From Eledone cirrhosa (Eukaryota): 64,000 bases of DNA. Location: assembly GCA_964016885.1 (NCBI GenBank), contig OZ024749.1, positions 40,796,001 to 40,860,000 of the forward strand. The letters are read 5' to 3'. Within the stretch, counting starts at the first letter, position 1. Every line of letters begins with the position of its first letter. The translations under genes were made by a program, and so were the position numbers. Of this stretch, positions 19,125 to 19,903 are shown in pieces. Below the pieces are notes generated by a model. It saw only the letters and a program-made list of their open reading frames with translations, had not been told where the DNA came from and made no database searches.

Positions 19125-19804
19125 ATTGTTTATTTCAGCACTCTGAAGGACAGTGTGGTGTGACGTTGTGGTCAATATGGTCTTTGAATGGTCACTCTGT
19201 AAAGGACACTGTGGTGTGATGTGGTCAATATGGTCACTAAATGGTCACTCTGTTGTATCTGTAAAGTACTGGTGTGATGTAGTCAGTATGGTCACTCTGT
19301 AAAGGACAGTGTGGTGTGATGTGCTCACTAAATGGTCACTCTGTTGTATCTATTTCAGTGCTATGAAGGACGTTGTGGTCACTAAATGGTCACTCTGTTG
19401 TATCTATTTCAGTGCTATGAAGGACAGTGTGCTGTGATGTTGTGCTCACTAAATGGTCACTCTGTTGTATCTATTTCAGTGCTATGAAGGACGTTGTGGT
19501 CACTAAATGGTCACTCTGTTGTATCTATTTCAGTGCTATCAAGGACAGTGTGCTGTGATGTTGTGCTCACTAAATGGTCACTCTGTTGTATCTATTTCAG
19601 TGCTATGAAGGACAGTGTGCTGTGATGTTGTGCTCACTAAATGGTCACTCTGTTGTATCTATTTCAGTGCTATGAAGGACGTTGTGGTCACTAAATGGTC
19701 ACTCTGTTGTATCTATTTCAGTGTTATGAAGGACAGTGTGCTGTGATGTTGTGCTCACTAAATGGTCACTCTGTTGTATCTATTTCAGTGCTATGAAGGA
19801 CAGT
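19125..19804 (+). repeat. 54/67-bp minisatellite spanning the AMMECR1 intron-exon boundary
   Basis: Unit CACTAAATGGTCACTCTGTTGTATCTATTTCAG|TGCTATGAAGGAC; AG ends at 19358, 19412, 19479, 19533, 19600, 19667, 19721, 19788. Confidence 0.95.
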
Positions 19805-19903
19805 CGGTTTAATCCGATAACTAAAGAAGAATTTCCCAAGCTACATTGCTCAGTATCGATACTGACTCATTTTGAAGAAGCTACTGATTATCTGGACTGG
19901 GAA
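19789..19903 (+). CDS. AMMECR1: AMMECR1-family protein, internal coding exon (115 bp)
   Basis: tatttcag|T GCT ... TGG GAA|gtaggt; (S)[38 protein letters not shown]; phase 2 joins previous exon AG+T=Ser. Confidence 0.95.

Follow-up and report, generated by a model that had tools for sequence, protein, structure and literature searches.

The AMMECR1 exons and the acceptor array

The window (the whole stretch of 64,000 nucleotides that was analysed) carries four coding exons of an AMMECR1 gene, and a tandem repeat lies across the acceptor of the second of them. The features on which the analysis is based are as follows.

4778..4887, + strand: upstream AMMECR1 coding exon, 110 nt, donor GT at 4888; Pfam PF01871 above the cut-off (E 4.5e-9); 3' end joined to 19789 in the X5 contig
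4888..19788, + strand: intron, 14,901 nt, phase 2, with the array at its 3' end; from the flanking exons and the X5 contig
19131..19160, + strand: ninth, oldest copy of the acceptor and exon start; common to organism B, where it resembles the exon sequence more closely; X4 differences at 19140 and 19143
19146..19301, + strand: decayed older repeat units of 38-62 bp, with AAGGAC and without the acceptor; from the unit table, the 72% match and a 53-bp TRF array
19325..19804, + strand: young minisatellite of 54- and 67-bp units, with seven extra acceptors and the used one (19788); multi-copy depth in X1-X3, skipped in X4
19789..19903, + strand: AMMECR1 coding exon, 115 nt, donor GT at 19904; Pfam PF01871 above the cut-off (E 6.4e-10); X5 contig
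20954..21044, + strand: following AMMECR1 coding exon, 91 nt; in X5 the loose end past 19910 corresponds to its start; Pfam match below the cut-off
23799..23965, + strand: last AMMECR1 coding exon with the stop codon; 100% identity to P0001 over 54 aa; Pfam match below the cut-off

The 160-aa peptide of the four joined exons occurs verbatim in P0001, an annotated Octopus vulgaris protein (named so by its source), in which 84 residues precede the first exon found in the window; a motif scan of positions 1-4777 did not locate the first AMMECR1 coding exon or exons. We took the verbatim match to P0001 to place the genome with an Octopus of that group. The intron downstream of exon 19789-19903 measures 1,050 nt, and the same junction spacing, with no insertion, was seen in 67/67 homologues that hold both anchor motifs (67 of the 120 homologues).

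Eight copies of the acceptor TATTTCAG end at 19358, 19412, 19479, 19533, 19600, 19667, 19721 and 19788, with spacings of 54, 67, 54, 67, 67, 54 and 67 bp in that order. CACTAA stands ~30 nt before each of them, and 15 of the 20 bases before the YAG are pyrimidines in every copy. Each unit joins ~38-51 intron bases to 13 (54-bp unit) or 16 (67-bp unit) exon bases; the exon part carries one substitution in two copies (19540, 19724), and the eight young cores contain 2 substitutions among them. Array periods of 67, 121 and 188 were returned by TRF with scores of 537-845, well above chance. The layout of eight acceptors in 54- and 67-bp units put forward in the preliminary description was reproduced, including its coordinates, CACTAA and exon bases. 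Its statement that the copies are essentially identical held for the acceptor and the pyrimidines, but the branch-like position reads CTCAC in 5/8 copies and GTCAC in 3/8, so the sites are near-equal only.

The core of the array is homogeneous, while the boundary region (19131-19428) matches at 72%, a contrast that is a feature of the 'mirage' minisatellites discussed below. The repeat decays away from the exon, as had been claimed: the units at 19146-19301 have kept the exon-derived AAGGAC motif and lost the acceptor, and beyond them 19138 marks the end of a ninth, older copy of the acceptor. In all, TATTTCAG is kept in seven young and one old extra copies, and three older units are without it. 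When the array was searched against its own genome, which gives a lower bound on copies, no second locus like it was found. The upstream copies were also considered as coding mini-exons; this was rejected, with no consensus-like donor inside the array in our scan and the unit peptide in 0/120 homologues.

Other repeats lie nearby. A 28-bp minisatellite of ~16 copies (19926-20371) starts 22 nt past the 19904 donor, so that exon 19789-19903 has repeats on both sides; the contig of organism B diverges from the 28-bp repeat at 19946. Ten copies of a 70-bp minisatellite unit, 98% identical, lie in the long AMMECR1 intron (window 5470-6161, TRF), and a TA-rich microsatellite of 5.3 kb occupies window 48602-53887 (TRF). 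The intron that precedes the last exon carries on its + strand (~21250-23300) a LINE-like retrotransposon piece broken up over several frames, and a 437-aa frame within it matches zf-RVT.

Reading frame and acceptor use

Translation agreed with the earlier claim that the 54-bp units are open and the 67-bp units are not: the former are open for 18 codons, and the latter hold an in-frame TGA. Splicing from 4887 to any upstream acceptor leads to a TGA at 19435, 19556, 19623 or 19744 (7/7), and the frame is open only from 19788, which bears out the statement that only the last acceptor is productive. By the usual rule, a transcript is an NMD substrate when its stop lies >50-55 nt before a downstream junction. 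The premature TGA lies 157-466 nt before the junction at 19903 for 7/7 upstream acceptors, which places all of them within this AS-NMD range.

Acceptor use was observed in run X5, which is not on record as RNA; we read it as RNA only since its contig shows splicing on either side of the exon. The one contig found (1/1; 1039 nt, depth 14) is unbroken over 4887/19789 and 19903/20954. It covers window 19787-19910, and its loose ends are the upstream-exon end and the next-exon start. The same 4887/19789 junction is present in P0001. With 4887 linked to 19789 in the X5 contig, the last acceptor is the one that serves the main product, as the preliminary description had assumed for correct splicing; this single spliced contig speaks for the major form only. 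No upstream-acceptor junction was seen in the X5 contigs, which are one contig set at depth 14 in which NMD would hide such products. Low leakage could escape such a test: contigs leave out rare variants, and upstream products would be thinned out by NMD.

Array turnover and junction copies elsewhere in the genome

Organism B (run X4) contributed one 657-nt contig. It fits 19106-19407 loosely, with 46 differences and 17 gaps, skips 19408-19741 and then fits 19742-19946 with 10 differences; the exon differences listed are all third-position (4/4). Organism B has the exon and the older decayed units and is without the seven young acceptors, so copy number differs between the two species (window vs X4). 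There is no AG at the position of 19358 in B, where the unit preceding the real acceptor passes straight into AAAGGACAG with no acceptor between. The distal copy at 19138 is common to both organisms and has kept its AG in both; in B (X4 record 56-94) it fits the young unit 19405-19443 with 3 differences over 39 nt. The RAD runs X6 and X7 had 0 reads at the locus.

The eight cores differ by 2 substitutions, and the expansion or homogenisation would therefore be younger than the split from B. A history can be proposed from these comparisons: an old duplication would have left the junction copy at 19138, the units between that copy and the exon would then have lost the acceptor, and in this lineage misalignment of the exon's AAGGACAGT with the same motif in the preceding unit would have re-copied the acceptor, yielding the 67- and 54-bp units recently. 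With two species this order of old duplication, acceptor loss and recent re-copying is unrooted as to gain vs loss.

To place the locus in its genome, we searched that genome with four Pfam families (72, 107, 52 and 138 matches; 369 together). The survey took in 331/369 matches; of the rest, 31 were set aside manually, 4 of them for lying on a duplicate-like contig and 27 as mostly long or near-duplicate matches, and 7 more lay outside. Splice sites were predicted by our own simple score, by which some will be wrong, and identical and low-complexity sites were removed. A junction copy was defined as 12 intron and 8 exon bases recurring with <=2 mismatches within 1 kb. Such a copy was found near 1/249 predicted acceptors and 4/293 predicted donors, which pooled to 5/542 splice sites (0.9%, 95% interval 0.3-2.1%); with a 30-base window the figures were 1/230 acceptors and 1/284 donors. 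The AMMECR1 acceptor, used as positive control, was recovered. Intronic look-alike AG/GT positions were copied in 131/1876 cases (7.0%, range 700 nt), so that junction copies at real sites were ~eightfold rarer than at look-alikes (0.9% vs 7.0%), although the look-alikes, up to three per side per match, are not independent and include dispersed repeats. Junction copies would thus be rarer than intronic repeats yet not rare, and may number hundreds to thousands genome-wide.

A second acceptor array was found at a kinesin exon, with a 120-bp unit that occurs 2, 5, 5 and 3 times in four copies of the gene.

G000, contigs C22, C1636 (twice) and C18, coding strand: kinesin acceptor arrays L050, L052, L055 and L056, ~40-520 nt before the Pfam match

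The four gene copies agree at 198-200 of 200 bases, and some may be haplotigs. Their differing unit numbers at near identity show that copy number drifts fast. All upstream copies of the kinesin array end in a stop (11/11), which shows that unproductive upstream copies are the default outcome and not a design.

Donor-side cases were seen as well. At L172 (G000:C1:322457784-322460390), a MAP-kinase-like exon end with its donor is copied 367 nt into the intron, amid a degenerate array made of pieces of the exon end. At L151, L281 and L012 (one kinase exon and two of myosin), a predicted donor junction recurs once each, 362, 51 and 110 nt into the intron; the donor of L281 is uncertain. At L134 (G000:C10:13962822-13965846), a 33-bp tandem repeat begins a few bases inside a kinesin intron and adjoins the donor without copying it. 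L006, L134, L147 and L246 were dropped as junction copies on viewing, the repeat lying beside the likely splice site and not across it; L140, L141, L247 and L280 were dropped by offset only, also with the repeat beside the site.

Interpretation and known systems

We consider it highly probable that the array is a young intron-exon-boundary minisatellite of the 'mirage' kind, which likely arose by replication slippage or unequal crossing-over and is likely tolerated, its upstream copies being spliced out with the intron. On this reading the repeat is likely tolerated clutter and not a control switch. The spliceosome would pick the acceptor nearest the downstream donor, and all upstream copies would leave with the intron. 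With 14.9 kb of intron upstream and 1.05 kb downstream, the exon would be defined across its length, and U1 at 19904 would pair with the nearest 3' site; the last acceptor would also give the shortest exon (115 nt, vs 182-545 nt from the upstream acceptors). Two GAAGAA hexamers, which we take to be enhancer-like motifs, lie in exon 19789-19903 and none in the array, and their confinement to the true exon may help the choice of the last site. If a rare leak did occur, NMD would remove it, as noise and not as regulation. Exon definition is thus the likely reason why the last site wins; the preliminary description had presumed as much, a fair inference given the flanking introns of 14,901 and 1,050 nt and the human data in PMC9225289. 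There, when the flanking introns are long, preference goes to the sites that lie nearest across the exon, and for 3' sites under exon definition the upstream preference is significantly reduced, which is not an exclusive downstream choice.

What is called neutral here may be mildly harmful, because junction copies at real sites are ~eightfold rarer and the older units are without an acceptor. Read as such a mildly harmful, transient state, the extra acceptors would leak slightly and cost expression, and would in time be purged by small AG deletions and reborn by slippage. The acceptor is indeed missing in the 19146-19301 units and in the units before the real acceptor of B, and the depletion at real sites is marked (Fisher p 5.5e-10). 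However, the acceptor-less units need no selection to explain them if a single deletion between two short CTAT repeats later spread, the 19138 copy, which is the oldest, retains its AG in both organisms, and the control also takes in dispersed repeats and pre-existing arrays, so the depletion need not mean selection. We regard this reading as unlikely; it differs from the tolerated reading in degree only.

Quite improbable, in our judgement, is a rheostat in which some splicing goes to the seven upstream acceptors, NMD destroys the products and array length sets AMMECR1 output. The sites are intact at 7/7 upstream positions, their stops make the products NMD substrates by the distance rule given above, and upstream 3' sites are often chosen in human data (PMC9225289). 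Yet a stop is expected from nearly any intron-derived extension, as in the kinesin array, and the X5 contigs, a weak test, contain no upstream junction. The alternative site is moreover not conserved: the seven young acceptors are missing in B (one relative), where the 19138 copy is shared. Because B has the exon and the old units and not the seven young acceptors, a conserved regulatory role is argued against. The same structure is spliced normally in the published cases (PMC3087553, PMC3902484, PMC1557585, PMC2630376), and a limited literature search found nothing tying AMMECR1 to NMD or copy-number control. The earlier proposal that copy number could tune expression through NMD is unsupported. 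The wider version, in which the rheostat sets gene dose and octopus junction arrays pass through a selected cycle of birth, AG loss and rebirth at ~1% of splice sites, is likewise quite improbable.

An assembly artefact, in which one or two units had been multiplied into the array, is extremely improbable. No listed contig spans the whole array and X1-X3 may be the assembly's own sample, but X1 carries unit-junction contigs with 0 differences at depths of 9.75 and 17 against 3.5 in the unique flank, and X2 and X3 reach 20.3 and 23.1 over 19554-19650. For the two X1 pieces the assembly predicts 3.1 and 6.1 copies, and the short-read contigs of all three runs have 0 differences to the array pieces or unit junctions. 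Because these contigs carry the array at ~3-5x unique depth, it is not an assembly artefact, the possibility that the preliminary description had itself raised. The multi-copy state is confirmed; the number eight rests on the assembly, X1-X3 perhaps being its own sample and the array unspanned.

As a single locus, the minisatellite is of small weight, being a described repeat type in a repeat-rich genome. It offers a natural setting for testing how a 3' splice site is chosen when near-equal ones lie 54-67 nt apart behind a long intron, and a two-species snapshot of array turnover. Were use of the upstream sites to rise with copy number, hidden expression variants in cephalopods could lie in hundreds of such arrays; nothing in the present data shows this.

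The structure is of an already named kind and recurs in this genome. The novelty implied by the preliminary description does not stand, since the same structure has been named in amphioxus, birds and human genes and a second array lies in the kinesin gene here; a limited literature search, which is no proof of absence, found no cephalopod report of such a splice-site minisatellite. Four marks of a mirage were found: a boundary-spanning unit, intron-side copies with the splice signal, use of the exon-proximal site, and a homogeneous core with divergent edges. Amphioxus 'mirage' minisatellites are described in the globins BflGb6 and BflGb9, Adh3, troponin C and PGBD5 (PMC3087553, PMC3902484). 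Like the array here, they are head-to-tail copies of an intron's 3' end plus the following exon's 5' portion in units of tens of bp, with AG in many copies, unhomogenised boundary units and normal mRNA; length variation between alleles was shown there (PMC3087553, PMC3902484). The present array differs from them in its mollusc host, its two interleaved unit lengths, and its older acceptor-less layer with a ninth distal copy.

Human CBS c.844_845ins68 is similar in that the junction between intron 7 and exon 8 is duplicated, the downstream copy is strongly favoured and the mRNA is normal (PMC2630376). It is a single polymorphic insertion with one extra copy, unlike the layered array with seven extra copies found here (PMC2630376). 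The human F7 IVS7 37-bp VNTR holds five to nine identical sites, of which the exon-adjacent one alone is used, and the others are functional when tested and do not compete (PMC1557585). That case lies on the donor side and was tested in minigenes, whereas ours lies on the acceptor side with an inferred mechanism (PMC1557585). Avian 'exon stuttering' likewise arises when local repeat expansion places copies of an exon's edge, donor or acceptor included, in the intron (PMC12954441). In contrast to the present case, it is found mostly on chicken dot chromosomes, and its population length variation was measured (PMC12954441). In chicken, 190/5,572 introns on dot chromosomes are affected (3.4%; PMC12954441), which is of the same order as our 0.9% per site.
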